A DNA stretch of 62,857 nt from Bacteroidales bacterium (GCA_035389045.1 DAOORA010000021.1:1-62857); one strand, 5' to 3'; positions 9,301 to 40,203 are shown, numbered from the stretch's first letter. A program made the numbers and translations. The notes: generated from the letters alone by a model not told the origin.

Positions 9301-12300
9301 TGAGTGTACTGCCCTCACATACCGGACTGTTGCTTGTCACAACGGGGTTGGGTGTCATGATTTGATGAACATAGAAAGATTCAACATCAGTACCACAAGG
9401 ACCTGATACGGTAACCGTATAATTCCCGGGGGTATAAACAAAGAGAGTGCTTGAAACAGAACCTGTACTCCATTGATAGGAACTTCCGCCGCTGGCAACC
9501 AATATAACAGTGTCTTCCTGGCAAAACAATGTATCTGGCCCGATGGCAGTGATACCAGCAGTTGTTGAACTGATTGAAACATTGATTGTTTTTATTTTGA
9601 TACCGCAATCATGGGTGGTCACAGCTACCGTATAAGCTCCTGATGCATCTGCTGATACATTGTTTATTGATGGATCGGACAGCGTGGAAGTAAATCCGTT
9701 CGGGCCTGTCCATGAATAAGATGCCCCTCCGTTCGCTGATAAATAAAGTGTGTCACCCTCACAGACCGGGCTGTTACTTGATATTACAGGATCAGATGCA
9801 ATGCTCCGGTGAACATAAATATGAGCATCATCTGTGCCGCAGTCATTTGTTACTGTAACGGAATAATATCCTGAATCGGTTACAGAGATTGACTGGGATA
9901 TGTAACCATTGCTCCAATGATATGATGTTCCCGGACTGGCAACCAGCACTACGGTGTCTTCCTGACAGAATAAAGTATCAGTTTCTATGGCTGTAATACT
10001 TGCTGATGAGGAAATGATCGAGACATTAATTGTTTTGATTTTGACACCACAATCATTTGTAGATACAGCCACCGAATAAACTCCTGAAGCATCTGTGGTT
10101 ACATTGTTGATTGAAGGATTAGGCAGTATGGAGTTAAAGTTGTCCGGGCCTGTCCATGAATATGATGTCCCTCCGCTTGCTGAAAGATTTAAAACACCGC
10201 CTTCACAGACAGGGCTATTACTTGATATTAAAGCATCAGGTGCCATGACGTTGTGAACATATATATGAGCATCATCAGTACCACAGGCGTTTGTAACTGT
10301 AACGGTATATAATCCAGAATCGGATACATAAATTGATGGTGAAACTGAGCCGTTACTCCACAAATAGGATGTTCCTCCACTGGCAATTAGAGCCACAGTA
10401 TCATCCTGACAGAATAATGTATCGGTACCGATGGTAGTGATACCAGCTGTTGTTGTAATTACAGAGACTGCAATTGTTTTCATAATAACACCACAATCAG
10501 GTGTGTTAACAGCCACAGTATAAATTCCCGAAGCATTGGAAGTTGCATGGTTTATTGTCGGGTTGGGAAGTGTTGAGGCAAATCCGTTAGGGCCTGTCCA
10601 TGAATATGATATGCCTCCGTTGGCTGAAAGATTAAGTGTACTGCCAGCACATACCGGACTGTTGCTTGTTACAACCGGGTCAGGTGTTATGATTTGATGA
10701 ACATAATAAGATTCAACATCAGTTCCGCATGGACCCGATACGGTAACCGTATAATTCCCGGGTGTATGAACAAAGAGTGTGCTTGAAACAGAACCCGTGC
10801 TCCACTGATAGGAGCTTCCGCCGCTGGCAACCAGTACAACAGTGTCTTCCTGGCAAACCAATGTATCAGACCCTATGGCAGTAATAGCTGCTGTTGAGGT
10901 AAGTACCATCACATTAACTGGAATTGATGTTTCGCATCCGTATACATCAATCACCGCTGTATAGTTCCCTGAATTACCAGGCATAGCATTTGGAATGACC
11001 GGATTTTGAAGATTTGATGAAAATCCGTTCGGACCGGTCCACGAATAGGAGGTCCCTCCGTTTGCTGAAAAAACAAGCGTATCGCCTTCACATACCGGAC
11101 TGGTAACCGATGCCGAAGGCAACACGGAGGTGATTACAAGGTCAGTGCCGTTATCAGTGCCCCAAATCTCTGGAATAGTAGCTATTACGCGTATTCTGTA
11201 TTTATGACCGGGCAACTGGTTAGCAGGTATGAAGGCATTTATGGTTCCGGAATTATAAAATGAGCTTTTTGAACCAATAACAGTTGCGTTAGTAAAACTC
11301 CCCGATGAATCGCTTAACTGTGCCCTGAAAACATTGCCACCATAAAAAGGCCCATAAGCAGCATACGGAATACTGATGTAGGTGCCGGGGGTAATCACAC
11401 AGGGCAACGCTGTGTCAATACGGATACTGTATACGCTGTCATTCATCGGATCATATTTCCAGAAATCATTATACATGCTTGTTTCTCCCCAACCGGTGCC
11501 AATGAAAAGATTTTTTAAAATTCTGAATCCGACAGAATTAGTTCTTTTCAATTCCGGTTCACAGGAAAATTCGGTCCAGGTATCGGCTAATGGGTCGTAC
11601 CTCCAGCAATCCTGAATATACCGGTAATAAGGAAGGTTTTGTGGAGAGGTATATTCACCTGAAATCAAATACCCATATTTTTCACCAGATATAGCTGTTA
11701 CACAAGCTCTTGCTTTGGCCGGCAGGGTGGCTTTTTGTGTCCAGCTGTCATTTACCGGATTATATTCCCAAAGGTCTCTCATTTCAGTTTGGTTCAGATC
11801 TTTCCGCCCTGTTCCGACATATCCCCTGCCATTCACCGAGAATGCCATCGCTCCTGTTCGTGCAGTAAAAGGAGGTGTGTTTTTTTGTACCCAGGTATCC
11901 GTCAAAGGGTTGTATTCCCACCAGTCGTTGATAAGGTTAACATTTTCGCCGGTGCCAACATATCCCTTTCCGTTCATAGAAATTGCCACAGTATTTACTC
12001 TTGCGGTGCCGGGAAAACCGGCTTTCTGTACCCAGGTATTAGTCAAAGGATTATATTCATAAAAATCAGTATAATATATCTGATTGTTAAAATCCGCACC
12101 GAGACCGACATAAGCCTTATTCCCGATTACAAATGAGACGGCGCAAACACGCGCTGCGCCAGGAAAATATGCCTTTTGAACCCATACATTGCTCAATGAA
12201 TTGTATTCCCACAAATCATTTAGATAATTATGGGTTGTGTAACTCACTCCGGTGCCTATATAACCTTTTGTTCCGATAGAGAATCCTGTGGCATATGCCC

Positions 12301-12403
12301 TTTGACCACCAGGCACAATGGCTTTACGCGACCAGTAACCCTGCGAAAAAACACTTAATTCTGAAAATAGAATTATAGAAAGTATTAATACAATTTTTCT
12401 CAT
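6367..12403 (-). CDS. Large T9SS-secreted protein: Kelch-repeat N-terminus, tandem Ig-like repeats, HYR-like domain, type A CTD (one gene spanning the assembly gap)
   Basis: Kelch blades GKGYVGTG...D.WEYNP..NTW.QKA; repeated SNSPVCEG.TLNLSA.GG.SYSWTGP modules; C-terminal NYPNPF...LPAGIYVYRL; the two track ORFs join across the N gap. Confidence 0.85.
8903..9002. other. Assembly gap (100 N) inside repeat region
   Basis: Run of N. Confidence 1.
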
Positions 12404-16332: not shown

Positions 16333-18021
16333 TTACACTTTTATGATTTTTTTTATCATGATTCCTTTGATGGTCTCTGCTTTTATAAGGTAAATACCCT
16401 TTGGTAAATTCTCCAAATCTATGGTAGATTCACCATCATCAGTATGCATTGTCTTTATAATTTGGCCTTCACCATTAAATATTGTTATGACAGATTTTTG
16501 GTTTGTTACGACTTCTATGCTGTTTCCTGCCGGATTGGGGAAAACTTCAAATTTGTTTTCTGTTACCAAAGTGTCATGTATTTCTGTTGCCGCAGATGAA
16601 AGCCTGGCGATAAAAATGTCTTCATAACCGCTATTTGATAAAACAGTGTTGCCCATCGTCATGCTAAGACTATTGAAAACTCCTGAAATATATATGTTCC
16701 CGGATTTATCTGTACACATACTGTTACTCCAGTCGGATGAATATCCTCCGGTACTTTTTGCCCAGACGGGGTTGCCTGAAGAATCGTATTTTGCAATAAA
16801 AATATCCGCATAACCCGGATAAACATTCGATAAAACATGACTGCCAAAAGTAAGGGCGGGACTTTTAAACCATCCTGTAATATAGGCATTCCCGGAACTA
16901 TCGGCAGTGATGGCCTGAGCGCAGTTGTCATAACTTCCGCTGATACTGTGCGCCCACGACACCTTTCCATAGCGGTTGTATTTCGCAATAAAAACAGCAG
17001 CTTCAGGAAAACCGGAATTGGTCAGAACCATGCTGTCCAAAGCAATGGAATGACTTTTAAAGTAACCGGTAAGATACATACTTCCATCTTCAGCTGTTGT
17101 TATACCATAACTTCCGTCATTCTCATCCGAACCTGCAACACTCCCTGCCCACAGGACACTTCCGGATGAATCGTATTTAACAATAAAGATATCTTCTCCG
17201 CCAATATTATCCGCATTTACTAAGGTAGTATCTCCAAAAGTGAGCAAGGAACTTGCGAAAACTCCGGTAATATATACATTTCCGGTATTATCGGTTGCGA
17301 TGCTGCGTCCTTCTTCAAATCCGCCACCCTCTCCATCCTGATTTCTCACCCATAATATATTTCCTGCCTGATCATATTTCGCAACAAAAAAATCATAAAT
17401 ATCATGAGTTGCCAGGTTGATCAACGTATCATTGCCGAAAATGACATAGGGTAATGCAAATGCGCCGGTGATATAGATATTATCATTTCTGTCAACTGCT
17501 ATACCCATACCTATCGCATAAAAACTTCCGTATGCTTTTTTTGCCCAGCAGACATTTCCCATGCTGTCATATTTTACAACAAATATATCACCATTGTCCA
17601 TTGTGCCTTTAATTAAAGTATCGTTGCCAAAAACGATAGTATCACTTGTGAACAGCCCTGTAATATATACGTTGCCGCTTTTATCAGCAACGATGCCATA
17701 ACCCTCGTCCCAACCAGGCCCCCCAGCACTTTTTGCCCAGAGCACATTGCCGGATGCATCATATTTGGCGATATATACATCGGTAGTATCATTGTCCCCG
17801 GCATTGAATAATGTATGAGTTCCAAAGCTGATGGCGGAACTTTTAAACCATCCGGTTATAAAAATACTTCCGTTACCATCGGCACAGATTCCGGTAGCAC
17901 GGTCCGATTTATCTCCCAAAGCGTTTTTGGCCCAATTCCAATCGTATATCTGGGCAGAGACTCTCTTATCTGTAAAACTTAAGAAAACTAATGCCAAAAA
18001 AATTAAAATTATCTTTTTCAT
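16333..18021 (-). CDS. SBBP-repeat beta-propeller protein with T9SS type A CTD
   Basis: Repeats GIA.D..GN.YITG.F and D.FIAKYD.SGN.LWA; C-terminal VFPNPA...LPKGIYLIK; start at MKKIILIF. Confidence 0.88.
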   Translation of the reverse strand: MKKIILIFLALVFLSFTDKRVSAQIYDWNWAKNALGDKSDRATGICADGNGSIFITGWFKSSAISFGTHTLFNAGDNDTTDVYIAKYDASGNVLWAKSAGGPGWDEGYGIVADKSGNVYITGLFTSDTIVFGNDTLIKGTMDNGDIFVVKYDSMGNVCWAKKAYGSFYAIGMGIAVDRNDNIYITGAFALPYVIFGNDTLINLATHDIYDFFVAKYDQAGNILWVRNQDGEGGGFEEGRSIATDNTGNVYITGVFASSLLTFGDTTLVNADNIGGEDIFIVKYDSSGSVLWAGSVAGSDENDGSYGITTAEDGSMYLTGYFKSHSIALDSMVLTNSGFPEAAVFIAKYNRYGKVSWAHSISGSYDNCAQAITADSSGNAYITGWFKSPALTFGSHVLSNVYPGYADIFIAKYDSSGNPVWAKSTGGYSSDWSNSMCTDKSGNIYISGVFNSLSMTMGNTVLSNSGYEDIFIARLSSAATEIHDTLVTENKFEVFPNPAGNSIEVVTNQKSVITIFNGEGQIIKTMHTDDGESTIDLENLPKGIYLIKAETIKGIMIKKIIKV

Positions 18022-18443
18022 AATCAATCCTGACTTTAATAAAATTGTAGACAAAACAAATATATATAAAAAAAATATACATAAGCTATTCTCTGAAAAT
18101 GGAACTGTTTCTATCTGAATGTTTTAATTTCATATATGTGAAGCTATGATCAACAGGTGCCTGTCTTGCAGCTCAGTCAGACCATTAATTGCATGATTAA
18201 TATATATTTATAAAGTATATAAAAATTTATTTTGATCTTATTATTCTATTGACATTAAGGCTATCTGATTTTTTATTGGAATCAGAAATACTATTCTTTT
18301 TAAAAGAGAATCCGAACTGAAATTTTAAAAAAGATAATGCCATGAATCTTATTAACAACGTTAATATCCATAAAATACTTGCTTTTTCAATTAATTTTTC
18401 TTATATTTGTAGTAGGTAACTAAAAAATTTAAATATTACCACT

Positions 18444-19337
18444 ATGAAAAAAATAATTTCTTTTATTTTGGGAATATTGCTTTTTTCCCCGCTGTATGCC
18501 CAGATACCCAACGGCGGATTTGAAGCATGGTCAAACGATTCAACTCCAGTAGTTTGGAATGGTGTTATTAATATTGATATTTATATACAGACATATCAGT
18601 TTTACACAGCGGCCAAAACAGCGGATGTACATTCCGGCGAATCTGCCGTGGTGGTGAGTACTAATAAATATACTCCCTATGTTGATATATTATTACCGGG
18701 CATTATGTCGTATGGCACAACCAATCTTATTCTGAGTCTCATTGATTTTAGTTTGATTACCAATACTACCGGAGGAATACCGGTCAATATAATACCTCAG
18801 AAAGTCAAAGGATATTATATGTATGAAGGTGTAAACGACGATTCCATGTCGGTAAGCGCTGAGTGTTATTATAATTCAATTCTTGTCGGCAGCGGAGGGC
18901 TGACAACCAATGTCCCGCAGTTAGAGTATATACCATTTGAATTTGACCTGACCTATACCGAAAACGATGTAACTCCGGATTTGTTTAACATAATTTTTCA
19001 ATCATCATCAAGCAGTGATCCCCAGTATGGCTCAGCTTTATATCTTGACGATATTTCAATAGAATATACGCTTGCAGGCATCACGGAAACGGTTTCTATT
19101 GATGAACTTGTGACTATGTATCCCAACCCTTCCCGCGGAATGCTTCATATCGGTCTCACCCCGGACGAAATGAATATTATTAAGGTGTATGATAGTTACG
19201 GTAAGCAGGTTTTTTCATCTGCATGTGATCAGAAATTTACCATGCTTGACATGAGTTCTTTCGCTAACGGGGCTTATCTCGTGGAGGTTATCAATTCTTC
19301 CGGGCATCATTTAAAGAAGTTCATTCTTGCCCGTTGA
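18444..19337 (+). CDS. T9SS type A sorting domain protein (carbohydrate-binding-like N-terminus)
   Basis: Signal peptide, QIPNGGFEAW, LYLDDISI, C-terminal MYPNPS...ANGAYLVEV. Confidence 0.8.
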   Translation: MKKIISFILGILLFSPLYAQIPNGGFEAWSNDSTPVVWNGVINIDIYIQTYQFYTAAKTADVHSGESAVVVSTNKYTPYVDILLPGIMSYGTTNLILSLIDFSLITNTTGGIPVNIIPQKVKGYYMYEGVNDDSMSVSAECYYNSILVGSGGLTTNVPQLEYIPFEFDLTYTENDVTPDLFNIIFQSSSSSDPQYGSALYLDDISIEYTLAGITETVSIDELVTMYPNPSRGMLHIGLTPDEMNIIKVYDSYGKQVFSSACDQKFTMLDMSSFANGAYLVEVINSSGHHLKKFILAR

Positions 19338-19473: not shown

Positions 19474-19929
19474 ATGGACGACAAGATCAAGCTTAAATCA
19501 TCTATTATTGAAACCTGCAGGCAGCAGCATCTGAACACTATTGAGAACCTGACCAGAGAAATGGATGAACATCAGCAGCTGGCCAACGAGTATGGCCCTC
19601 CAAAAGACCGTTACGATGCATTCCGGTCGCAGATGTTACGGAGGCGTGATATTTTTGCCGAGCAGTTGCAGAAGGCCAACCTGGAACTGGCTTCGCTGGA
19701 TATGGTGAATCCTGAGGAATTGAAAACAAAAGTTGAATTTGGCGCTGTAGTGATTACCAGCCATCAAAAGCTTTTTGTTTGCATCAGCATGGGAAAAGTC
19801 ACCGTGGGCAAGGATACCTGGTTTGCTATTTCTCCTAATGTTCCGCTGTTTCAGGTTTTGAAAGGATTGAAGCCGGGCGATACCGCTGTATTTAATAATA
19901 ACACCATTCAGATCATTGATGTTTTCTGA
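19474..19929 (+). CDS. GreA/GreB-like protein
   Basis: N-terminal coiled coil; C-terminal VEFGAVV...ISPNVPL...LKGLKPGD. Confidence 0.65.
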   Translation: MDDKIKLKSSIIETCRQQHLNTIENLTREMDEHQQLANEYGPPKDRYDAFRSQMLRRRDIFAEQLQKANLELASLDMVNPEELKTKVEFGAVVITSHQKLFVCISMGKVTVGKDTWFAISPNVPLFQVLKGLKPGDTAVFNNNTIQIIDVF

Positions 19930-21034: not shown

Positions 21035-21592
21035 TTAAACAACACTCAGGATTTCTTCCAGAGCAGAAGATGCATATCGGGCATCGGTTTTATATGTTCC
21101 TAATGTTGGTGTAACTACAGCCTTCTCTGCCGGGGTAATTATCATAAGCGCTATACAGATACGGATTTTATCTTCGATCCGGTCCAATCCTGATATCAGT
21201 GCATTGGTGATTACACCTGTTTTCAGATCTTCTGAGGCATGATACAGACATCCTTCAATGGCATCATGGCTGCCGATCATGGTATAACAGGGCCCTTTGA
21301 TCGTAAGTTGACGGGCAAGAAAACCGGCAGGCCCGTTGGCAAGGGTCCAGTTAAAGTTGGCCGGATTGGCAAACCCAGGACTGTGCAGGAGTGCATTTTT
21401 CCAAAAAGTGATTGACTCAAAAACCCCTGCATTTGTGGTGGCCAGGTACAGTCCGGTTTTATTCTCAACATAGCCGGATTCTGATAACCATCTCTTTATG
21501 GAATTGGCTATAATTGATAACTTGTCTTCGTAAGGGCTTGATTCTGTTGTGAATTCATCTTTAAGCCATCGTGTGCAATACATTATTTCCAT
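21035..21592 (-). CDS. Short ketosynthase-like (chain-length-factor-like) protein
   Basis: NPANFNWTLANGPAGFLARQLTIKGPCYTM resembles the KS N-terminal domain; no TAC catalytic motif; overlaps the KS gene. Confidence 0.7.
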   Translation of the reverse strand: MEIMYCTRWLKDEFTTESSPYEDKLSIIANSIKRWLSESGYVENKTGLYLATTNAGVFESITFWKNALLHSPGFANPANFNWTLANGPAGFLARQLTIKGPCYTMIGSHDAIEGCLYHASEDLKTGVITNALISGLDRIEDKIRICIALMIITPAEKAVVTPTLGTYKTDARYASSALEEILSVV

Positions 21593-22740
21593 TTTTTAAT
21601 AAACAAAGCTGAGTTTAATCCTCCGAAAGCATAGCCACAATTCAGAATATAATTCAGTTCCTTTTGGCGGCTTGCCCTCACCAGATCAATGGCAAACTGC
21701 GGGTCCGGTTCTTCGAGGTTTGCCGTTGGGGGTATTACGTTATGCTGCAACGCCATGATGCATACTGCTGTTTCAATGGCTGTGGAGGCTCCCAGCGAAT
21801 GTCCCAGGGCTCCTTTAATACCGGACACAGGAACATCAGCACCGAAAACCGTATTAATGGCCAGAGCTTCTGCGTTGTCAGACGCCATAGTACCGCTTCC
21901 GTGAGCACAAATCCAGTCTACCTTACGGGCATCCACATCCTCGATGGTAAGCGCTGTGGTCATGGCCTGTATGATTCCTGTACCATCGGGCAGGGGTGCG
22001 GTTTGATGGTATGCATCACAGCTTAATCCCAGCGCACCGATGATAGCCAGTGGCTTTGCACCTCTTTGCAGTGCATGTTCTTCTTCTTCGAGTATGAAGA
22101 CAGCAGCGCCTTCGCCCAGCATCATGCCATCGCGGTTACGATCGAAGGGCCTGCAGATATTTGTTGTCATCGCTCTGGAACGGCTGAAGCCCGTCATGGC
22201 AACCCGTGAAAAAGGCTCTATACCTCCTGCAATGGCCACATCGGCATGGCCGTTGCTGATGTATGAGGCAGCAGCGCCCAGTGCATAATTTCCTGCCGCA
22301 CAAGCTGTTCCATAGGAGAACGACGGCCCTTTCAGCCCCAGTTCTTTTTGAATCAGTCTTGCAAAAGAGTTGACCGTGTAGTCGGCCGGGTTGAGCTCCG
22401 CTCCGCCTGCCATAGCTTCAAAGGCTCCGCTTTCGCCTAAGGTGGACCCTATAAAGATTCCTGTATGGTCCGGAAAGCTGACCGACGATCCGGCTAAGGC
22501 ATTATGCAGTGTTGTTTTCGCCAGCCATGACCCTCTGGCCAGGGATGATATGGTTTTGTCATCCGCTATCCTGCAGGCTTTGGTAAAACGGAACCCTTCC
22601 TCTTTAAGGTCCGGCCACTCCCTGACCGAAGATTTTCCTGCTGTGAGCATGGACCAAATCAGGTTTTTATCGTTACCCCAGGGCGTCATCAGTGCGAAGG
22701 AGGTGACAACAGTGCGTCTTTTCTTATAAGTATGGTTCAA
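21583..22740 (-). CDS. Beta-ketoacyl-ACP synthase (FabF-like)
   Basis: TACAAG Cys, CRPFD..RDG..LGEGAA, AHGSGT, KGALGHSLGA, AFGGLN. Confidence 0.93.
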   Translation of the reverse strand: MNHTYKKRRTVVTSFALMTPWGNDKNLIWSMLTAGKSSVREWPDLKEEGFRFTKACRIADDKTISSLARGSWLAKTTLHNALAGSSVSFPDHTGIFIGSTLGESGAFEAMAGGAELNPADYTVNSFARLIQKELGLKGPSFSYGTACAAGNYALGAAASYISNGHADVAIAGGIEPFSRVAMTGFSRSRAMTTNICRPFDRNRDGMMLGEGAAVFILEEEEHALQRGAKPLAIIGALGLSCDAYHQTAPLPDGTGIIQAMTTALTIEDVDARKVDWICAHGSGTMASDNAEALAINTVFGADVPVSGIKGALGHSLGASTAIETAVCIMALQHNVIPPTANLEEPDPQFAIDLVRASRQKELNYILNCGYAFGGLNSALFIKKWK

Positions 22741-22744
22741 AGTA

Positions 22745-23008
22745 TCAGTTTTTAAAAGAGGTACGATTTTTCACCTGTTCAAAAATATAATCAGTAATGA
22801 TATTGATAGTAACCAGTTGTTTCCAGATAGAGTCAGGTATTTCAATTTTGAACGACTGTTCGGCTCTGGCCACCAATTCAGCCATATCCACAGAATCAAA
22901 ACCTATTTCATTCATCAGATGCGCCTCGGGAGGAATAGATTCAGGAAGGTTTTTTTTTACTTTTCTGATCTCGCTGACGACGAGATTCTGTATTTCTTTT
23001 TTTTCCAT
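22745..23008 (-). CDS. Acyl carrier protein
   Basis: EIGFDSVDMAELV...F.IEIPD. Confidence 0.92.
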   Translation of the reverse strand: MEKKEIQNLVVSEIRKVKKNLPESIPPEAHLMNEIGFDSVDMAELVARAEQSFKIEIPDSIWKQLVTINIITDYIFEQVKNRTSFKN

Positions 23009-23009
23009 T

Positions 23010-23939
23010 TCAATAATAGATTTTAATTTTTTTGGCTGTTTTTACTGATGATGCAGTTGCGTAAATAGGAGCAAAGGGATCGCCTATCAGCCGGTACGAA
23101 CTGATCGCTGATTTGTTCATGGGAGCCGCATCAGTTATTAGTTCACCGATGGTATCTATGCCTTTTTTCAGGGAATTACAAATATTAAAAGCCCATCGTG
23201 TATTATCGGTAAAAAACGAAGCATTTACACTACCGAATGCTGATGCTGCTATTCCTTCTGTGACAAGGTTTTCGCTGAAGGAGAGGGCTACATTCCTTCT
23301 GTTGGCTGTATGACAGCACAACGACAGAAAACAGCCGGCAGGTTCATTGAAAAAATCATGAAAATGTTTCATCCGGATTCCGTAATATCCTGCCCAACCC
23401 ACCGGTCTGCCGTGTCCGAGGTAAATAACAGCGCCCATTCCGCAATTTATCCCGGACATCATATCTTCGGGAAACACCAGCTCCGAAGTCCAACGAAAAT
23501 ATGTGATATCTTTATGTAAATCTCTGAATTCGTTTTCCATTTTGTCTGCAACCTGCAAATATTGGCGGTTTCTTTGTGCAAGCAAACCTAATGCAATTTT
23601 AAATTTTTTCCTGTTTTGAACCAGGGCTGCGGTATTTATGAATTTATTAAGTGTATCAGTATTTTTGACTGGAAGCCATGAAACGGGGATTTTTTTTTCG
23701 TTGGTAAGCATAAATGGTTTGGATACTATATTACGTGGGGCAAAACGAAAATTTCCGGCAAGCATTACGGCATCGTAACCTGCTGCTAACGTTGTAATCT
23801 GGCCTTCTGCCGGCAGTTTTTTATCCCTGTATTCAAAAAAATCCGGCGTGATGTTTTGTGAACTCCAGGCATCAACCAATGGTGAAAAATGCTGCCTGAG
23901 GTTTTCAGGCAGCACGATGAGTAAGCGTTTACGCAACAT
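23010..23939 (-). CDS. C25 (gingipain-like, clan CD) cysteine peptidase domain protein, no signal peptide
   Basis: IYLGHG His, LSLCCHT Cys, FSENLV..G, TIGE, YRLIGDP. Confidence 0.7.
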   Translation of the reverse strand: MLRKRLLIVLPENLRQHFSPLVDAWSSQNITPDFFEYRDKKLPAEGQITTLAAGYDAVMLAGNFRFAPRNIVSKPFMLTNEKKIPVSWLPVKNTDTLNKFINTAALVQNRKKFKIALGLLAQRNRQYLQVADKMENEFRDLHKDITYFRWTSELVFPEDMMSGINCGMGAVIYLGHGRPVGWAGYYGIRMKHFHDFFNEPAGCFLSLCCHTANRRNVALSFSENLVTEGIAASAFGSVNASFFTDNTRWAFNICNSLKKGIDTIGELITDAAPMNKSAISSYRLIGDPFAPIYATASSVKTAKKIKIYY

Positions 23940-26900
23940 TTCTTACGGGCATACCGGCTTTGAATGAATCAATATAAGGTTCCCAGGCTGAGTAATCCAG
24001 GCTTTTTACATAACGCCTGTTGTAATAGTGCTTGGCTATCTGTCCCTGTTGTTCCGGATTGAATTCAGAAAGGTCTCCGCCGGCATTAATGAGTGCTGTT
24101 TGGCCACCTTCGCCGGTTTCTTTATCCGTGTATCCGTAATTATAGCCTGCTGCAAACCAGTCTGAAGTAAGCGCATGTGCAAGATAAACAGGGCCTACAT
24201 GCTGATTTTGCCAGACATGTGTCAGTTCATGTATCAGGGTGTCATTATCAAAATCTTCGTCGGTGTCGAAATTAATGAGATTAGCTGTGACAAAAGCTCG
24301 CGAATCCCTGTTGCCGGTCAGATTACTAAAGTTGCCGTCGGCAAGCTGTCCGAAGAAATCCTGAACTCCAAAGATGATATCGTTTGCGGCATCTGCTTTT
24401 GAGATAAAGACCTCATTGAGGCTGATACTGTTGGCAAATACCTTTCTGGCTTCTGTTTTCTCTGCTTCGGTGAGCGGGCGGTATCCGGCGAGCATCTGGA
24501 AGAGGATGCTGATAACGGTTCCTATTGCTCCTCCGGAAACTTCAAGCACGCCAGTAAGGATGTCTAATGCTGCTTTTCCGATTTTTACAAGGGCTTTTAC
24601 GGTTTCATCGAGGAATTGACTGGCGGTTTCAATGATTACTACCCGGAAGACGTCCTTCAAAGTCTTGCCGATGTCATCCATGGCATTAAGAAAGTTCTGA
24701 TAAGCTTCTTCCGGATGTTTGATGGTTTCTGTGATGAGGGTAGCCAGCGTAATACCTGCACTGAGGGCGCCTTTGATCACTTCACCAACAACTTCTACTG
24801 AACGGCTGGCCATCCAGGAAACTAATTCATAAACGGCATAACCGGCATCAAGGACGCCTTTCACCACTTTCTCAATGCCGGGGATAAAGTCTTTTTCAAG
24901 GTAGTTAAGCACATAGTCAACGGATTTGCCGATTTTTACTATAGCCTTACCAATTTTTTCCAGCGCTTTGCTGCCGGCAGCTTCTGCCCATTCGATCACT
25001 GATTTGATGGATTCTCCGATATCATCGAGTATGATCAGCATCTGGTTAAAGACGTTTTCTGCCTGTTTGGCTGCCCAGTTAAGGGTTTCTGTTACACTTT
25101 TCTTGACAAAACGAATAGCCAGTATGGCATCCCGCCATAATGCGGAGGTCAGTTGTTCACCTTTTTTGATCAGCCAGTCCAGAACATCTCCCACTGGGCC
25201 TAAAGCTTGCAGAAGACCGGTGACGATTTTGCGGAAAACATAGTATCCTGCTTTAGCTACCGATTCGAGAATGTTTGCGACACTGGCGCCTACTTCGAGG
25301 GCTGCATCAATAAGACGTGCAGCGGTTTTGTATGTAAATACTACCAATGTTTTTGTAAACTCTGCGACGGTTTTTCCAAGTTCAAAGGCCGCCTTGATGG
25401 TTTTTTTCAGCAGGTCAAAAGATATTTTAGCAATATCTTTCATAAGGCCTACCAAAGTTTTTCCGGCTTCAAACAACGCATTCACAAGTTTTTTAATACC
25501 GCTTACCGCGAGGGTTGCCATTGAAGTGATCATGCCAACCACTGTTTTGCCGGCATCTACCAGACCTTTAACTATCGCTTTTGCAACATGCACGGCAGAG
25601 GTAGCGACATAGGTCATGAAATCTTTCATCACAGTTCCTATCCTGGCTGTAGCCGCTGCCACTTTCCGGATCAGGGTTGCTCCTGCATTTTTAACCTGAT
25701 TGAAAAGATCTGCAACTTTGTATCCCAGTTCGCGAAAAGAACTGACGATGGTATCAAAAAGCGCAGAGGGATGTGTGAGCGCCGTGACAAGTATCTGGCT
25801 GACCGTCTTTCCAAGTTCGATCAATGCCTGAACTGTATTTTTTATGAGGGTGGCCCCGAACTGCAGCGCCTGCATAAGGATGTTGCCGATGGACTTACCA
25901 ATTTCGATCAGCGCCTGCACTGCCTTTTTGACGATGTCAATAGCCTTATTTACGAGGTATTGCAACAGTTCGGCAAAAACCCTTCCGAGATTGTCGATGG
26001 CCTGCAGCACATATTTTAATCCTTTCATGGCCATCTGGAAGGCATCATCAAGGATATCGTAGATTTTTTGTCCTATCGCAATGAGGCCATCGACCATTTT
26101 TTTGACAAAGTTATATCCGTATTCCACGGCAGCTACCAGAATATCTTTGATAGATTTCAGGGCATCCCAGAGCGAACGTGCCAGGCTGGCAATAGCATCG
26201 GCAGCCCAGTTTATCGCCTGAGATATAGCCTCTCCGATACTTTTTAAGGCCGATTTGATCTCATCTACGATGCTGACAATGGCATCGGAAATGGCATCGG
26301 CAACATCTTCAAAAAACTCGACTACAGCTTCATCCGTTCCTTTTACTTTTTTTGTTACCGCTTTTTTGTTTTTTTTGTCTAAGGAGCGGAGGTACGTTCC
26401 CGCATCACGAAGCCAGTAAAGCACATCTTTTATGCCAGCTTTGTTTTTATTTCCTTTCTCATCAATTACAAAGTCACGCATCAGAATATTGCCATGCTTA
26501 CGGGGAAGCTGGCTCATGGCATGTACCACCCCGATGCCCTGTCCGGCTGTCCGGTATCCTTTAATAACTGCAACTCTTTCTTTTTTCTTCATGGTAGCCA
26601 CTTGCTGGAAGAACTCCCTGTGATCTTCCTTCTTTTTGATGTTTCGTGCATACGTAGCAGCCAATTTTTCAGCATTCTTAGGACTTTTGGCATACACAGC
26701 CATATATGCCGGCGCCAACTCATTAGAGTGATATTTAGCAGTATTTAATTTTGTTGACAACTCTTTTTCATTTTTAAAATCGGCTGAGGTTATCTTCTTT
26801 AAAATCCGGTTGTTGGCGGCCTCCAGAGGCTGGACATAAAGGTATTCCTTTTGGGTGGCCACCTTCCTGGGTTTTAGCTTGACCATATATTTGGCGCTTC

Positions 26901-27231
26901 CGGCCGGAGCTTTTTGCGCCCTTACAGACCTGGAACCCGTTTTACTTTTTTTTACAGCAGCCCCTTTTTTTACAGGAGTTTTTAGTGATTTTGTAGTTTG
27001 GGTGACGGTTTTAACCTTATTAACAGCCGTTTTGTTTTTAACAGGATTTTTTTTCACGCTTGCAACAGTTTCTTTTTTGGCCATAGTTTTGGTTGAGGTT
27101 TTTGTTGCAGCTTTAGTTGCCGTTTTTGTTGCCGTTTTGCTACTTTTAACTTTGCGTTTGGCCACTACAGCATTTTTTTTCACCGGAGCTGATTTTTTAA
27201 CTTTGGGTGTTGAAGATGTTTCTTTTTTCAT
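23929..27231 (-). CDS. ~1100-aa protein: Lys-rich N-terminus, ~18 tandem 29-aa helical repeats, C-terminal DUF4157-like HExxH domain
   Basis: ATG 27231 follows the -7 element at 27298; RPLTEAEKTEARKVF, LIHELTHVWQ, FNPEQQG; Gly every 29 residues. Confidence 0.8.
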   Translation of the reverse strand: MKKETSSTPKVKKSAPVKKNAVVAKRKVKSSKTATKTATKAATKTSTKTMAKKETVASVKKNPVKNKTAVNKVKTVTQTTKSLKTPVKKGAAVKKSKTGSRSVRAQKAPAGSAKYMVKLKPRKVATQKEYLYVQPLEAANNRILKKITSADFKNEKELSTKLNTAKYHSNELAPAYMAVYAKSPKNAEKLAATYARNIKKKEDHREFFQQVATMKKKERVAVIKGYRTAGQGIGVVHAMSQLPRKHGNILMRDFVIDEKGNKNKAGIKDVLYWLRDAGTYLRSLDKKNKKAVTKKVKGTDEAVVEFFEDVADAISDAIVSIVDEIKSALKSIGEAISQAINWAADAIASLARSLWDALKSIKDILVAAVEYGYNFVKKMVDGLIAIGQKIYDILDDAFQMAMKGLKYVLQAIDNLGRVFAELLQYLVNKAIDIVKKAVQALIEIGKSIGNILMQALQFGATLIKNTVQALIELGKTVSQILVTALTHPSALFDTIVSSFRELGYKVADLFNQVKNAGATLIRKVAAATARIGTVMKDFMTYVATSAVHVAKAIVKGLVDAGKTVVGMITSMATLAVSGIKKLVNALFEAGKTLVGLMKDIAKISFDLLKKTIKAAFELGKTVAEFTKTLVVFTYKTAARLIDAALEVGASVANILESVAKAGYYVFRKIVTGLLQALGPVGDVLDWLIKKGEQLTSALWRDAILAIRFVKKSVTETLNWAAKQAENVFNQMLIILDDIGESIKSVIEWAEAAGSKALEKIGKAIVKIGKSVDYVLNYLEKDFIPGIEKVVKGVLDAGYAVYELVSWMASRSVEVVGEVIKGALSAGITLATLITETIKHPEEAYQNFLNAMDDIGKTLKDVFRVVIIETASQFLDETVKALVKIGKAALDILTGVLEVSGGAIGTVISILFQMLAGYRPLTEAEKTEARKVFANSISLNEVFISKADAANDIIFGVQDFFGQLADGNFSNLTGNRDSRAFVTANLINFDTDEDFDNDTLIHELTHVWQNQHVGPVYLAHALTSDWFAAGYNYGYTDKETGEGGQTALINAGGDLSEFNPEQQGQIAKHYYNRRYVKSLDYSAWEPYIDSFKAGMPVRNVA

Positions 27232-27297
27232 ACTAAAGTTATTATATAAATATTTATTTAATGATTTTAAAGTTTGTAAAAAAATGTAAATGAAAAG

Positions 27298-27305
27298 CAA
27301 ATATA
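27298..27305 (-). promoter_or_regulatory. -7 promoter element (TATATTTG) for the 5-gene operon
   Basis: TAnnTTTG on the minus strand ~65 bp upstream of ATG 27231. Confidence 0.6.
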
Positions 27306-28803: not shown

Positions 28804-30570
28804 TCAGAGGGTTGTGATCTGGTGAACTGTTCTCCGTTCCCCGATCTGTTGCCGCCACATGGCATAATACAATCCTTTTTGTGCCAGGAGTTCGTCGTGG
28901 GCTCCGGTTTCGGTGATTTTCCCTTTTTCCAGTACATAGATGACATCGGCATGCATGATGGTCGAAAGGCGGTGTGCTATAAGTATGGTGATCAGTTCTT
29001 TGTTTTCAGAAAAGCTCCGGATCGTAGCGTTTACTTCTTCCTCGGTAAGGGAATCCAATGAAGAGGTGGCCTCATCAAAGATCAGCAGGCGGGGATGGCG
29101 CAGCAAGGCCCTGGCAATGGAAATCCTTTGTTTTTCGCCACCGGATAATTTCATACCGCCTTCGCCCAGCACGGTATTTATTCCGGCAGGAGACGACTTT
29201 AGCAATTTTTCACATGAAGCCTTCTTTAATGATTCCAGAATATCGTCATCGCTGGCGTCGGATTTTACGAACAACAGGTTGTCTTTTATGGTTCCTGAAA
29301 ACAGTTGTGTATCCTGTGACACAAATCCTATTTGCCGGCGCAGTTCATTGTAACGGATCAGAGAAGAAGAGTGTCCGTTGAAAGAGATATCCCCTTTTTG
29401 TGGTTTGTACAGGCCGAGCAGGAGTTTCACAAGGGTGGATTTTCCTGCGCCTGAAGGCCCGGCAAAGGCAATGGTCTGCCCTGTCTTTACCAGGAATGAA
29501 ATGCCGTCGATGGCGTTGAAATATGCAGTTTTATGACGAAAGACAACATCACGGAAACTGATGTCACACAGTTCTCCAAGATCTACAGGATTCTCCGGCC
29601 TGCGGTCGATGGGTTTTTGCATCAGATGATCAAAGCTATTGACGGAAGCTTCTACCTCGCGGTAACTGAGAATGATATTACCCATGTCCTGCAGGGGCAT
29701 GAAAATCGAGGTGGAAATGAATTGCATGGCGATCAATTCGCCGGTCGACAAGACTTTTCTGAAGATAAGCCAGAGCAAAATGAACAATATGGAATGTTTT
29801 AATATGCTGAGCAGGATGCCCTGGAGAAATGTCAGGGTACGAACCTTTTTTACCTTTTTCATTTCCAGCTGAAATATCTTCAGTGTCTGGTTTTTAAGAC
29901 GTTTGATCTCGGGAAAGGTAAGCCCCAGACTTTTCACCAGTTCAATATTTCGCAGGGATTCGGTAATCACTCCCGACATCATGTAGGTTTCGCGGTTGAT
30001 GGAGCGCTGTAGGATTTTGATCTTTTTGCTGAGCAGTCCGGTCAGCGTTCCAAGGAAAACGATGCCTATAAGAAAAACAGGAATTAGCAGCCAGTTTTTT
30101 GTCACCGAATACCAGATAAGAAATCCCATTCCCACTATAGACGAGAATAAAATATTGATGAATGAATTGGTGAACTGCTGGGTGTCGGTTTTTACTTTTT
30201 GCAGCAGCGACAGTGTTTCTCCGCTCCTTTGTTCCTCGAATTCCTGAAAAGACAAACGTAATGTCTGTTTTAATCCATCGTTGAAAATTTGCATACCGAA
30301 TTTCTGAACAGCCATCCGTGTAATATATTCCTGTATGGATTTGGCCGCCCTTGCCAGCAAGGCTATACCAACGGCCACGGCCAACCAGAATAGAACTCCT
30401 ATCACCATTTCATTTTCGCTGCGGGTGATGGAAGGTATAGCATAATCATCGATTATTTTTCCGAAGATCACCGGATCGAGAAGGTTCAACAGCTGACTGA
30501 TACCTGCCAGCACAAGCGAAAGAAGGATGATCCACCGCTGAGGTTTCAAATATTTCCAGAGAATTTTCAT
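28804..30570 (-). CDS. ABC transporter, fused permease/ATP-binding
   Basis: TM domain; GPSGAGKST, LSGGEKQR, LIFDEATSSLD, IAHRLSTI. Confidence 0.95.
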   Translation of the reverse strand: MKILWKYLKPQRWIILLSLVLAGISQLLNLLDPVIFGKIIDDYAIPSITRSENEMVIGVLFWLAVAVGIALLARAAKSIQEYITRMAVQKFGMQIFNDGLKQTLRLSFQEFEEQRSGETLSLLQKVKTDTQQFTNSFINILFSSIVGMGFLIWYSVTKNWLLIPVFLIGIVFLGTLTGLLSKKIKILQRSINRETYMMSGVITESLRNIELVKSLGLTFPEIKRLKNQTLKIFQLEMKKVKKVRTLTFLQGILLSILKHSILFILLWLIFRKVLSTGELIAMQFISTSIFMPLQDMGNIILSYREVEASVNSFDHLMQKPIDRRPENPVDLGELCDISFRDVVFRHKTAYFNAIDGISFLVKTGQTIAFAGPSGAGKSTLVKLLLGLYKPQKGDISFNGHSSSLIRYNELRRQIGFVSQDTQLFSGTIKDNLLFVKSDASDDDILESLKKASCEKLLKSSPAGINTVLGEGGMKLSGGEKQRISIARALLRHPRLLIFDEATSSLDSLTEEEVNATIRSFSENKELITILIAHRLSTIMHADVIYVLEKGKITETGAHDELLAQKGLYYAMWRQQIGERRTVHQITTL

Positions 30571-33670: not shown

Positions 33671-34405
33671 TCAATTTCCTTTCCGGCCTTCTTTTTTGCC
33701 AATTTGCATCCAGTGCAAAACAGCAGCCTTGAAATTTTCAGCTCCCAATGATTTTCTCAGGTCTTCATGATTATATAAATATTTTGCTGAATTGAAATAT
33801 TCAGTACTGTCGCGGCCTTCATCAATGCCTTTGTCAAGCCAGTGAAAAAAAGCGCCGGCATAAGATCCCCTCACCGACAATTTTACATCGTTGTTGTTCG
33901 TAAGGTAAAAGGACGGGTTAAACGGAATATCGGACACATAATCATAGGATTCTTTTTCCAGTGGCATATTGTAATAACCATATTCCATAAATTGTTCGCC
34001 ATATCGGGCTGCGAATCGAAATTCGCCGAGTTCCCTGATTTGCCGGACATGGTTCAGTTCATGAACAAGCAACTTTATTTCTTCATAATTGTACAGGTCA
34101 CTTTCCTTCAGGTAAATGCTCCAACCCAAAGTCATACCTTCAGTTTGTTTTGAATTTTTGAACCAATTAGCAGGTAAAGTGGCGTTTTTAATTATACGAA
34201 CCCTGCTTAAATCGAGTGACGGAAAGAGAAAACTGATTTTTTTCTCCGTGTCAGGATAAATAGGACAGCGCCTTTTGTTATGATTAATTATTTTTGCCAT
34301 TGCCTTAGTTGCAAAATACACAGTAATACCAACGAATCTGTAAATTAACTTTTTGAAGGAATTCGCAGCGGCCATAAAACTGTATTTTTTATATCCTACG
34401 GGCAT
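33671..34405 (-). CDS. DUF4157-like HExxH protein with two C-terminal F..YL..N.D...HW...G..EGR repeats
   Basis: GMTLGWSIY, LVHELNHVRQ, YYNMPLEKESY; repeats FNPSFYLTNNNDV...HWLDKGIDEGR and FNSAKYLYNHEDL...HWMQIGKKEGR. Confidence 0.7.
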   Translation of the reverse strand: MPVGYKKYSFMAAANSFKKLIYRFVGITVYFATKAMAKIINHNKRRCPIYPDTEKKISFLFPSLDLSRVRIIKNATLPANWFKNSKQTEGMTLGWSIYLKESDLYNYEEIKLLVHELNHVRQIRELGEFRFAARYGEQFMEYGYYNMPLEKESYDYVSDIPFNPSFYLTNNNDVKLSVRGSYAGAFFHWLDKGIDEGRDSTEYFNSAKYLYNHEDLRKSLGAENFKAAVLHWMQIGKKEGRKGN

Positions 34406-39090: not shown

Positions 39091-40203
39091 ATGAAAAAAC
39101 TTTTATTCATTGTATTTATTTTCTGCATTTCAATCGGTTATGCACAAACACCCATTACCTTAGATATTAATGACCTTGCCACACCAGTAAAGACTTATGA
39201 TGTTCGGAATGACACTGCCGTTGATCCGATGATCACTCCCGGTAATCACGGCGCCAACGTTACATGGAATTTTCAGTCGCTTCATGCCAATCATGACACT
39301 ATTAAAGTAAAAGTGGTATCGCCATCAATAATTCCGGCTCATACTTTTTTTCCGGCTGCCAATCTGGCCATAATTTACGACAGTGCGGTCAATATGTATT
39401 TTTTTAACCGTTCTGCTGCTGGCCTGGTATTGCATGGCACCATTTATGACTTCTTCAATTCAGACGATTCGATCCGTGTAACGCTCACCACGCCGGATAC
39501 GGTTCTTGCACTGCCCGGTGTATATGGTGATTCTGCATACAGATACAGCTTTGGGGATACCAAATCGCGCTGCAGTTATTATTATGACACCAACTTCAAT
39601 GGATTTCCTGTTTCTGTGCCTATTGATACGGTGCGTATCAAGCACAGCCAATACAAAACTGATGTTATCGACTCATGGGGCACTATGAACACGCCCACCA
39701 GCAGTTTTCCGGCCTTACGACAAAAAAATACCACTTACAGCACCGATTCCATCTGGGGTTATGCTAATGTCCCGGCTCCTTATCAGAGTTATTCCGGCTG
39801 GTATTTCCTTATTTCGCGGAAGGATACCACACTCATGTATACCTGGTGGACGAAAAACTTCGGTTATCCTGCCTTAAAAATGACAATGGTGCCTCATTAT
39901 CCCAATGTAGCCTTTAATGTCGAATGGGCACACGATGTACCTACCGTCGGCATAGAAGAAAATGAATGGATGAACACGGCCGTATTTCCGAACCCTGCAA
40001 CAGATTATATTACAATATCCAATATCGGAGGTTTTTCCGAACTGGTGATCTATGGTGCCGCGGGTAATGAAATTTCAAGGCAAAACATTAAAAACAATGA
40101 TTTGGTGAAGGTTTCCGTTCAGCACCTTGCCAACGGGCTTTATTTTTATAATGCCGTGAATGCCGGTAAAAAAACCAGCGGGAAATTTGTTGTAAAACAT
40201 TAA
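39091..40203 (+). CDS. T9SS type A sorting domain protein
   Basis: Signal peptide, GANVTWNF, DSWGTMNTP, C-terminal VFPNPA...LANGLYFY. Confidence 0.85.
   Translation: MKKLLFIVFIFCISIGYAQTPITLDINDLATPVKTYDVRNDTAVDPMITPGNHGANVTWNFQSLHANHDTIKVKVVSPSIIPAHTFFPAANLAIIYDSAVNMYFFNRSAAGLVLHGTIYDFFNSDDSIRVTLTTPDTVLALPGVYGDSAYRYSFGDTKSRCSYYYDTNFNGFPVSVPIDTVRIKHSQYKTDVIDSWGTMNTPTSSFPALRQKNTTYSTDSIWGYANVPAPYQSYSGWYFLISRKDTTLMYTWWTKNFGYPALKMTMVPHYPNVAFNVEWAHDVPTVGIEENEWMNTAVFPNPATDYITISNIGGFSELVIYGAAGNEISRQNIKNNDLVKVSVQHLANGLYFYNAVNAGKKTSGKFVVKH

Follow-up and report, generated by a model that had tools for sequence, protein, structure and literature searches.

What function would bring together, within a single operon, a giant repeat protein, a gingipain-type peptidase and a small set of acyl-chain enzymes? 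This question is raised by a stretch of 62,857 nucleotides (nt) of a Bacteroidales bacterium (GCA_035389045.1 DAOORA010000021.1:1-62857; hereafter the window, meaning the whole stretch of DNA analyzed), in which five co-directional open reading frames (ORFs) occupy positions 21035-27300 of the minus strand. In order of transcription, these ORFs encode a giant protein (23929-27231, 1100 amino acids (aa) counted from an ATG at 27231, in a frame that remains open to a TTG at 27300); a C25-like peptidase (23010-23939, 309 aa; hereafter C25); an acyl carrier protein (ACP; 22745-23008, 87 aa); a beta-ketoacyl-ACP synthase (KS; 21583-22740, 385 aa, with a TTG start); and a short KS-like protein (21035-21592, 185 aa; hereafter half-KS). 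The giant and C25 genes overlap by 11 nt, C25 and ACP are 1 nt apart, ACP and KS are 4 nt apart, and KS and half-KS overlap by 10 nt. The original prediction, made by reading the DNA alone, described five genes that overlap or lie 1-4 bp apart behind a single upstream -7 element. Our analysis recovered all five ORFs and their junctions as described, and these genes form a real, tightly packed cassette.

The -7 element corresponds to the TATATTTG box at 27298-27305 (minus strand), a Bacteroidota-type, TAnnTTTG-type promoter-like sequence located 67 nt ahead of the ATG at 27231. It is a consensus match only, and the TAnnTTTG motif is not enriched across the window (79 matches versus 65 expected, with 79 reached in 6 of 100 shuffles). 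Since the TTG at 27300 overlaps this box and the starts of the relatives match from the ATG, the ATG at 27231 (MKKETSS...) is the more likely start of the giant gene. A scan of the operon revealed no internal terminator-like or promoter-like sites above shuffled expectation, and a Pfam search of the five proteins agreed with the earlier claim that no reductase, dehydratase, acyltransferase or exporter is encoded within the operon. No published description of the cassette was found in full-text literature searches (which covered articles without their supplements) or in PADLOC. Its parts belong to known families; their combination, the half-size KS partner and a bare cytoplasmic C25 are not described in the literature searched, where we also found no described system joining a type II KS/ACP set and a clan-CD peptidase with a VgrG2b-type zincin carried on a long helical repeat.

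Synteny had been named as a check on the original prediction, and the gene arrangement proved to recur well beyond the window. To survey it, one genome per species was sampled by means of two C25 motifs, which gave 127 candidate stretches, 84 of them with a relative and 80 of which were kept. The giant gene lies directly upstream of C25 in all 65 genome loci with at least 3.5 kb of upstream DNA. Downstream of C25, the 69 genome loci with at least 2.3 kb of sequence contain an ACP gene in 55 cases, a KS gene in 57 and a half-KS gene in 54, always co-directional, and the complete order and orientation seen in the window recur in 53 of them. KS-like ORFs number 77 in the 280 kb directly after C25 versus 0 in 639 kb of outer flanks, a contrast that is not a formal test given that the loci are related, for which reason locus counts are not independent events either. 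The pairwise distances of the five proteins co-vary (Spearman 0.57-0.71 over 56 cassettes), and the C25 clades reappear in a tree of the giant at a cost of 6 changes (minimum 3; mean of shuffles 45). Beyond the cassette itself, the flanks of the 80 genome loci share no gene family across lineages. The adjacency of giant, C25, ACP, KS and half-KS is far beyond chance.

According to record labels, the genome loci belong to Bacteroidota (29), Actinomycetota (16), Pseudomonadota (13), Desulfobacterota-type bacteria (5), Acidobacteriota (4), Fibrobacterota (3), Gemmatimonadota (2), Myxococcota (2), and one each to Campylobacterota, Nitrospirota, Chloroflexota and Verrucomicrobiota; the remaining two are a 6-kb contig binned as Thermoplasmatota and one unclassified record. 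The cassette has spread by gene transfer over about 12 phyla. It is rare in the order of its host, being present in 1 of 201 genomes (1 of 180 high-quality genomes), namely that of the window, and it is absent from one genome of the same genus and from one other genome of the same family. The G+C content of the cassette (0.45) is close to that of the window (0.42), so that composition gives no sign of transfer, and a DNA comparison with same-genus and same-family genomes, aimed at the borders of an island, gave three short matches only. Across about 12 phyla, the giant retains 52% mean identity over 1000 residues and all active sites are intact; a cassette kept almost unchanged in this way points to a strongly constrained, host-independent function. 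Cultured, harmless carriers exist, including, by record label, Lacinutrix, Terrimonas, Variovorax paradoxus, Nitrosospira briensis, Rivibacter subsaxonicus and Oryzobacter, which makes the cassette experimentally testable.

The giant is the best conserved of the five proteins (mean pairwise identity 0.52, versus 0.49 for KS, 0.45 for C25, 0.38 for ACP and 0.31 for half-KS), and no Pfam family matches it above cut-off. Its architecture was derived from a family alignment (A3) of 33 sequences with a mean column identity of 45%. The protein begins with a lysine-rich, acid-poor disordered tail (approximately aa 1-140; 26812-27231, minus strand) of histone H1-like composition, with 43 Lys or Arg versus 4 Asp or Glu in the first 150 aa. 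A tail of at least 30 aa is present in 16 of the 33 giants, 15 of which have at least 20% Lys plus Arg in it, and is missing from the others. This is followed by a conserved N-terminal domain of about 160-180 aa in the family alignment (approximately aa 141-300; 26332-26811, minus strand), which has no Pfam or PDB sequence match to any family and which, used as a query against a collection of 5.8 billion proteins, returned 1 protein.

The central part of the giant (approximately aa 301-900; 24532-26331, minus strand) is built from tandem helical repeats of 29 residues, about 20 in number, all of which have a conserved Gly(-Lys) turn, and the invariant glycines of the family alignment follow this 29-residue spacing. 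The BLOSUM autocorrelation of the protein peaks at lag 29 (z = 15.6), with harmonics at 58 (z = 12.5), 87 (z = 11.9) and 116, so that the giant is indeed the repeat protein it had been taken for. Repeat number varies, and relatives of about 730-790 aa hold fewer repeats. At E ≤ 0.01, Phasin_2 matches 28 of the 33 giants (best E = 4.5e-14), the spartin Senescence domain 9, ApoLp-III 3, the lambda tape-measure C domain 2, and Chlorosome_CsmC 1. The giant of locus L095 exceeds the ApoLp-III cut-off and also matches PspA and Apolipoprotein, that of the window stays below the Phasin_2 (PF09361) cut-off (16.6 versus 24.9 bits), and the match of the repeats to the tape-measure protein 6v8i (E = 4.7e-6) is weak and compositionally biased. 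An Atlas feature search with the giant returned its own family only, under the automatic name 'phage tail protein'. We therefore treat these similarities to amphipathic lipid or polyester coats, or to helical rulers, as leads that may guide interpretation, not as family membership.

The C-terminal part of the giant (23929-24531, minus strand) comprises a hydrophobic helix (Kyte-Doolittle 19-residue maximum of 1.68) directly ahead of a zincin of the VgrG2b/DUF4157 type (HELTHVWQ ... FNPEQQG), whose residues H1024, E1025, H1028 and Q1031 (HExxHxxQ) are invariant in the family alignment. The family profile aligns to the effector domain of VgrG2b (6H56, chain 6h56_A) with E = 1.4e-10 in two segments, HExxH and EQQG, by which the zincin is identified, at the level of sequence, as a homologue of this domain. 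The DUF4157 label given in the original prediction was thus right in kind, but falls under the Pfam threshold for the window giant (PF13699, 16.9 bits versus a cut-off of 22); 6 of the 33 relatives match PF13699 at E ≤ 0.01. No signal peptide was found on the giant. The last repeats together with the zincin (profile positions of about 730-977) also end PKD-repeat proteins of 2137 and 1946 aa as well as TSP3-repeat proteins, so that this module is a mobile, effector-type domain. These carriers (P0201, P0209, P0203 and P0197, of 800-2137 aa) have PKD or TSP3 repeats, which are typical of secreted surface proteins. A second, small DUF4157 zincin gene is present in the window itself (33671-34405, minus strand, 244 aa; PF13699 at 22.8 bits, just above cut-off), next to a methyltransferase gene and small membrane-protein genes. 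It is the only PF13699 match of the genome besides the giant, and shares with the giant only the HELxHVxQ region (BLASTP E = 0.003).

The second gene of the cassette encodes a C25 family protein, as first predicted (PF01364, 47.7 bits versus a cut-off of 23). Its His176-Gly177 and Cys209 are invariant in 22 of 22 relatives (32-62% identical to the window protein) and align with the catalytic His and Cys of the gingipain R RgpB (4ief_B, E = 7.8e-6) and of PorU (6za2_A, E = 6.2e-5), PorU being sortase-like and attaching its cargo to a lipid-linked glycan. The ESM Atlas model of the exact protein (pTM 0.91) superimposes residues 1-297 on gingipain-type catalytic domains with TM scores of 0.80-0.83. 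By alignment and model, it is a clan-CD member of the gingipain/PorU fold with an intact His/Cys dyad, and a predicted peptidase. Unlike gingipain R and PorU, it lacks a signal peptide, a propeptide, an immunoglobulin (Ig) domain and a type IX secretion system (T9SS) sorting tail, and its nearest structural matches all bear propeptides, Ig domains, dockerins or T9SS tails. As this bare 309-aa catalytic domain has none of these elements, it is presumably cytoplasmic.

The three remaining genes, hereafter the trio, encode the acyl-chain proteins. The ACP exceeds the PP-binding cut-off (PF00550, 32.9 versus 20.8 bits), remains below every NCBIfam ACP cut-off, and has its attachment site at Asp38-Ser39, with Asp-Ser invariant in 50 of 50 relatives. 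The KS contains both the N-terminal (PF00109, 108.1 bits) and C-terminal (PF02801, 93 bits) ketoacyl-synthase domains, and Cys147, His280, Lys309 and His314 are kept in 46 of 46 relatives, in line with the earlier description of an ACP followed by an intact KS. The KS misses all NCBIfam equivalog cut-offs, including FabF (TIGR03150, 278 versus 493.75 bits) and AmcF (234 versus 325 bits), and in the cassette the AmcB model reaches 29 bits versus a cut-off of 80. The identity of the KS to any of the genome's eight further KS genes does not exceed 39%, and its best solved relative is 9s5h_B (275 bits; best FabF, 209 bits). These features predict an elongating beta-ketoacyl-ACP synthase of the KAS I/II type with an intact Cys-His-His triad.

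The half-KS has no Pfam or NCBIfam match above cut-off. Its family profile, made from 25 relatives, matches part of a non-catalytic KS partner of solved structure (9s5h_C, residues 90-191; E = 6.8e-8) and part of FabF (residues 119-215), and at the position of the catalytic Cys it has varying residues, with no conserved Cys or Gln. The short non-catalytic KS-like protein of the original prediction is thus a KS fragment. By profile alignment, it corresponds to the N-terminal half of the thiolase fold alone, a half to which the dimer-interface and tunnel segment belongs. Its relatives measure 130-250 aa, with a longer form of 347 aa in locus L073, and it is the only match of its kind in its own genome. 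KS and half-KS best match different chains (B and C) of one solved heterodimer, 9S5H. By our assignment, 9S5H and 9S5I are probably the anammox pair amxFabF2/amxFabFmut, the identifiers themselves not being found in the preprint text. According to the available part of that preprint, the heterodimer of a FabF-like and an inactive FabF subunit decarboxylates malonyl-ACP and makes acetoacetyl-ACP on a dedicated ACP, with residues 110-140 forming a dimerization and tunnel-forming motif (bioRxiv 10.64898/2026.05.19.726425). This motif falls inside the part retained by the half-KS (aligned residues 90-191), which makes the protein of interest for how KS chain-length tunnels are built. As far as could be found, it is the smallest KS partner noted so far.

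The trio resembles KS/chain-length factor (CLF)-type heterodimers: its active Cys-His-His KS is accompanied by an inactive homologue and a private ACP, and the cluster encodes neither reductase nor dehydratase. It differs in the length of the partner (185 aa instead of about 400) and in the lack of conservation at the Cys/Gln position. A related arrangement is found in cispentacin biosynthesis, for which the portion of the source available describes a KS with a reduced partner that makes a non-aromatic product and relies on the host proteins FabD and FabI (PMC10698177). The cassette differs from the cispentacin set in missing the AmcF, AmcB and FabF cut-offs, and in having no AmcH loader and no AmcG match; no adenylating AmcH-like loader occurs among the genes conserved at the loci.

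How might these proteins work together? We tentatively favor the reading that the cassette is a maturation module acting on the giant, in which acyl-ACP is used on the giant and C25 cuts it; we consider this possible, though well short of probable. On this view, the cassette would act in the cytoplasm as a self-contained unit that moves horizontally; its obligate core would be the giant helical zincin with its cognate C25, to which the subfamily of the window adds a private supply of acyl-ACP. In a first step, KS would pair with half-KS in the manner of KS/CLF-type heterodimers and would prime and extend an acyl chain on the cassette's own ACP, while malonyl loading and the reduction cycle would be borrowed from the type II fatty acid synthase (FAS II) of the host, as reported for the KS pairs of cispentacin and anammox. 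The acyl-ACP would then be used on the giant, whether its acyl group is attached covalently or the acyl-ACP merely docks, and it would bring the hydrophobic helix and the amphipathic 29-residue repeats to the surface of a membrane or of lipid. In a last step, C25 would cut the giant either at its variable basic tail or linker or ahead of the zincin, maturing or releasing the zincin. C25 is one candidate among several for the enzyme that would move the acyl group.

This maturation of the giant is consistent with the conserved gene order, the lack of any other conserved flanking gene, the co-variation of the five proteins, their invariant active sites, the best matches of KS and half-KS to the two chains of 9S5H, the unrelated FabB-like KS and ACP that converge on C25 in one clade lacking the trio, and the matches of the repeat region to helical families found on lipid surfaces (Phasin_2 in 28 of 33 giants, ApoLp-III in 3 of 33). 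The available text on the VgrG2b zincin reports that it depletes lipoproteins from membranes, and its authors suggest an action at lipidated linkers (PMC6899460), which gives this zincin family a link to lipidated proteins. If acyl-ACP is indeed used on the giant, proteins would be lipidated here by a new route, and the gingipain fold would have acquired a new role. A functional parallel may be the activation of RTX toxins, where acylation is carried out by an HlyC-family acyltransferase, in systems that use the housekeeping ACP and carry export genes. Both would involve a large protein whose lipidation from acyl-ACP depends on another protein of its own operon, as proposed here for the giant, but no HlyC-family protein is found among the five of the cassette.

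Several observations weigh against this proposal, among them the distribution of the trio. In a metagenome sample fetched by means of the zincin motif of short giants (393 stretches with relatives, 80 kept), C25 follows the giant in 58 of the 72 loci with at least 1 kb of downstream DNA, and a co-directional trio is present in 12 and absent from 21 of the 33 loci with enough downstream sequence. Across the C25 tree, the giant and C25 stand without any KS set in 32 of the 114 classifiable loci, and in five trio-less genomes no short KS partner was found elsewhere in the genome. Since the pair occurs without the KS set, a dedicated acyl-ACP cannot be essential to the core function. The remaining points concern the proteins themselves. 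No position of C25 tracks the presence of the trio (0 trio-specific positions), compared with 18 in the giant, including Arg267 and Arg298. These two arginines were considered as evidence of ACP docking and rejected as clade markers, because they are kept in the recent trio losers L020 and L028 and absent in the KS-bearing loci L073 and L053. At E ≤ 0.01, none of the five proteins matched an acyltransferase Pfam family, HlyC included. No site of modification or cleavage could be identified on the giant, and to our knowledge no clan-CD enzyme transfers acyl groups from ACP. The phasin and apolipoprotein matches can stem from helical composition alone, and the window giant is below the Phasin_2 cut-off. 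The idea in the original prediction that C25 cleaves the giant and/or lipidates it from the ACP is therefore upheld as regards gene linkage, which is strong, whereas nothing singles out C25 as the acyl-transferring enzyme, and we can only infer that the giant is cleaved or acylated.

Because the pair often stands alone in the metagenome sample, the giant and C25 form the core of the cassette and the KS set is a frequent add-on. The C25 tree (FastTree, 138 rows) shows how this add-on is distributed; all trees are effectively unrooted, the midpoint root serving for drawing only, and a locus was labeled as carrying the trio if it had a co-directional KS accompanied by ACP, half-KS or both, or, in the case of a short contig, any member of the trio in that direction. 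By this definition, 78 loci carry the trio, 32 do not, 4 have a convergent KS and 24 are not classifiable, and the trio label requires at least 4 changes on the tree. An Actinomycetota clade (22 rows) has the trio in all 20 classifiable loci, and the clade holding the window (63 rows) has it in 57 loci and lacks it in 4 (L020, L028, L152 and L135). A third clade (45 rows) lacks it in 25 loci, has it in 1 (L073) and includes the 4 loci with a convergent KS. A small clade of short giants (7 rows) has no trio among its classifiable members. We found no case of the trio without the giant and C25 among the loci, all of which were fetched via C25 or the giant.

The four loci with a convergent KS (L071, L109, L110 and L116) form one clade (support 88), in which a FabB-like KS gene followed by an ACP gene converges onto the end of C25. 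With 358-373 bits, these KS proteins fall short of the cut-off of the KAS I model. By gene content, this is a second, differently arranged link of the pair to acyl-ACP chemistry, arising from a single evolutionary event. The convergent sets lie at L071:4272-6242, L110:4570-6077, L109:5725-6981 and L116:2634-4240, with ATP-grasp and major facilitator superfamily (MFS) transporter genes beyond the KS in L071. A 249-aa ORF beside the convergent KS of L110 was considered as a half-KS and rejected (hhalign E = 0.74). Likewise, a patatin-like phospholipase was rejected as a partner, since its gene follows C25 in the Geobacteraceae locus L052 (8994-10499) only, and not in the closest relatives.

Among the 14 metagenome loci in which C25 does not follow the giant, 6 have in its place a 296-aa ORF that aligns weakly with C25 (hhalign E = 1.3e-3, probability 18%), with His-Gly, Cys and C-terminal motifs in register in this weak alignment. 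In these loci (L092:2291-3181 and L095:8888-9772, and also L093, L096, L108 and L131), the remotely C25-like ORF comes after a short giant of about 680 aa. In a clade without the KS trio, a gene for a protein of 630-865 aa with three LGFP cell-wall-binding repeats lies directly upstream of the giant on the same strand (L099:4241-6838, L104:4667-6799 and 9 further metagenome loci).

The alternative that survives best is that the giant is a pro-effector with a C-terminal VgrG2b-type zincin, which C25 processes or releases in trans, the KS trio making a lipid or small molecule of its own that does not act on the giant. We regard this as somewhat doubtful, yet a serious competitor; if true, a protease-armed effector of this kind would represent a conflict module not seen before, one that brings along its own supply of lipid. 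The zincin occupies the extreme C-terminus, which is the position of a toxin domain, and its module is shared with the PKD- and TSP3-repeat proteins described above. The giant and C25 are often found with no trio beside them (32 of 114 classifiable loci; 21 of 33 metagenome loci), and carriers are rare and scattered, with 1 among 201 genomes in the order of the host. In the available part of its description, the C-terminal domain of VgrG2b is a periplasmic antibacterial toxin (PMC6899460), and among polymorphic toxins, the portion available of Zhang et al. (2012; PMC3482391) reports that some proteins have this metallopeptidase as their C-terminal toxin domain, and assigns processing to caspase-like peptidases.

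The comparison with these toxins also shows where an effector fits poorly. The last 200 aa or so of the giant align with the C-terminal domain of VgrG2b (FG-x-SID, HExxHxWQ and NxEQQG), and both stand at the C-terminus of a long carrier. VgrG2b, as described in the text available, is fused to a type VI secretion system (T6SS) spike, acts in the periplasm of the prey and has a lipoprotein immunity partner (PMC6899460), whereas the cassette has no spike, conserved contractile injection system (CIS) gene, signal peptide or immunity-like gene. With polymorphic toxins, it shares a C-terminal metallopeptidase in toxin position and a clan-CD peptidase, as far as the source text available goes (PMC3482391). 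It differs from them in that the peptidase has a gene of its own instead of being an internal domain, and in the lack of RHS or filamentous repeats, a trafficking domain, an immunity gene and variable C-terminal cassettes; the same available text contains no counterpart to the ACP/KS set (PMC3482391). In extracellular CIS (eCIS) effectors, the DUF4157-type domain is N-terminal according to the available text (PMC8213781), while the zincin of the giant is C-terminal.

At the level of the loci, the flanks contain no conserved gene for secretion, trafficking or an immunity-like function, PADLOC-DB 2.0.0 (2023) gave no match at E ≤ 0.01 for any of the five proteins, and no relative of the cassette was found in 2.9 million viral contigs. 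The phage-type sheath gene (PF04984) is absent from the host genome (96% complete) and present in 2 of 5 other carriers, a search that covered this family and not that of the T6SS sheath. For a protein engaged in an arms race, the mean pairwise identity of 52% along some 1000 aa, between phyla, is unusually high, and an effector leaves the tight translational coupling to ACP and KS unexplained. A link to eCIS or phages was considered separately and fell, as the 80 loci have no conserved CIS gene, the host has no sheath gene and there is no viral relative.

A less likely explanation takes the helical matches more literally. In this case, the giant would be a phasin- or apolipoprotein-like coat of a lipid or polyester inclusion, tethered to the nucleoid in the style of PhaF, with monomers supplied by KS/ACP or by the host FAS, and with C25 as a transacylase or polymerase. 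We consider it unlikely, despite the matches of the giants to Phasin_2 (28 of 33), Senescence (9), ApoLp-III (3, with L095 above cut-off) and Chlorosome_CsmC (1), and despite a basic tail of at least 30 aa in 15 of the 33 giants. According to the available part of its description, PhaF joins a phasin domain to a histone-like AAKP DNA-binding tail (PMC5658603). The giant resembles PhaF and PhaM in having an amphipathic helical region with Phasin_2 matches and a histone-like basic tail, but it is about five times larger, has a regular 29-residue repeat, an extra N-terminal domain and a zincin, and its host genome has no polyhydroxyalkanoate (PHA) synthase. As PhaC is missing from that genome (no match to PhaC_N), a phasin-like protein there needs another partner. 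Against it, matches to helical families are prone to compositional artifacts, with the window giant below the Phasin_2 cut-off, half of the giants have no basic tail, and the cassette has no reductase for hydroxyacyl monomers. Moreover, the invariant zincin and the conserved N-terminal domain would have no role, and we know of no precedent for a polymerase role of the clan-CD fold.

A combination of these ideas appears more improbable still, namely that the cassette is an undescribed kit for protein lipidation or lipid bodies. KS, half-KS and ACP would feed a gingipain-fold acyl-ACP transacylase, which is not, or not only, a protease and which loads the chain onto, or polymerizes it under, a phasin-like coat tethered to the nucleoid by its histone-like tail, with the zincin as a trimming enzyme.

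The trio could also be read as the heart of a small-molecule cluster, since KS, CLF and ACP are the minimal set of a type II polyketide synthase. KS, half-KS and ACP would then build a short polyketide or unusual fatty acid, the C25-fold enzyme would off-load it from the ACP as a thioesterase or amide synthase, and the giant would serve as a scaffold or in self-protection. The score of the KS on the cispentacin AmcF model (234 bits) and the non-aromatic product that a KS with a reduced partner makes with help from the host FAS, as given in the available part of PMC10698177, are in its favor. The AmcF, AmcB and FabF cut-offs are nevertheless missed, no AmcH-like loader or AmcG match is present, and no tailoring, regulator or export gene is conserved. 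A small-molecule cluster is unlikely because the giant is the best conserved of the five proteins and persists without the trio, and we give it little credence. That the five genes are chance neighbors or mis-called ORFs with no functional link can be dismissed in view of the conserved order, the overlapping stops and starts, the co-variation and the invariant active sites across about 12 phyla.

Near-identical DNA is present in activated-sludge runs. Contigs from the RNA libraries of three such runs, at least 99% alike to the window, map to the giant and C25 genes, and one of them (23894-24044) spans the giant/C25 junction. As DNA can occur in such libraries, these contigs are a weak sign of expression at most, and the fact that they gave no cover of ACP, KS and half-KS proves nothing.

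Downstream of the cassette in the window, a convergent RlmD-like methyltransferase gene ends 18 nt past the last stop of the operon, and a 151-aa ORF with no family match (19474-19929, plus strand) overlaps the start of this gene. Upstream, a nearby ATP-binding cassette (ABC) exporter gene (28804-30570) is not conserved at other loci. Further away, six proteins encoded in the window have a T9SS C-terminal sorting domain (Por_Secre_tail/CHU_C; 6367-9054, 16333-18054, 18444-19337, 39091-40203, 43230-47069 and 47411-49273), and T9SS-tailed proteins in this 63-kb window indicate a Bacteroidota host with a rich set of secreted proteins. The T9SS-tailed ORFs 6367-9054 and 8855-12403, both on the minus strand, overlap at a run of 100 N (8903-9002) that marks a scaffold gap, and they are probably parts of one very large Kelch/Ig-repeat surface protein split by this gap.

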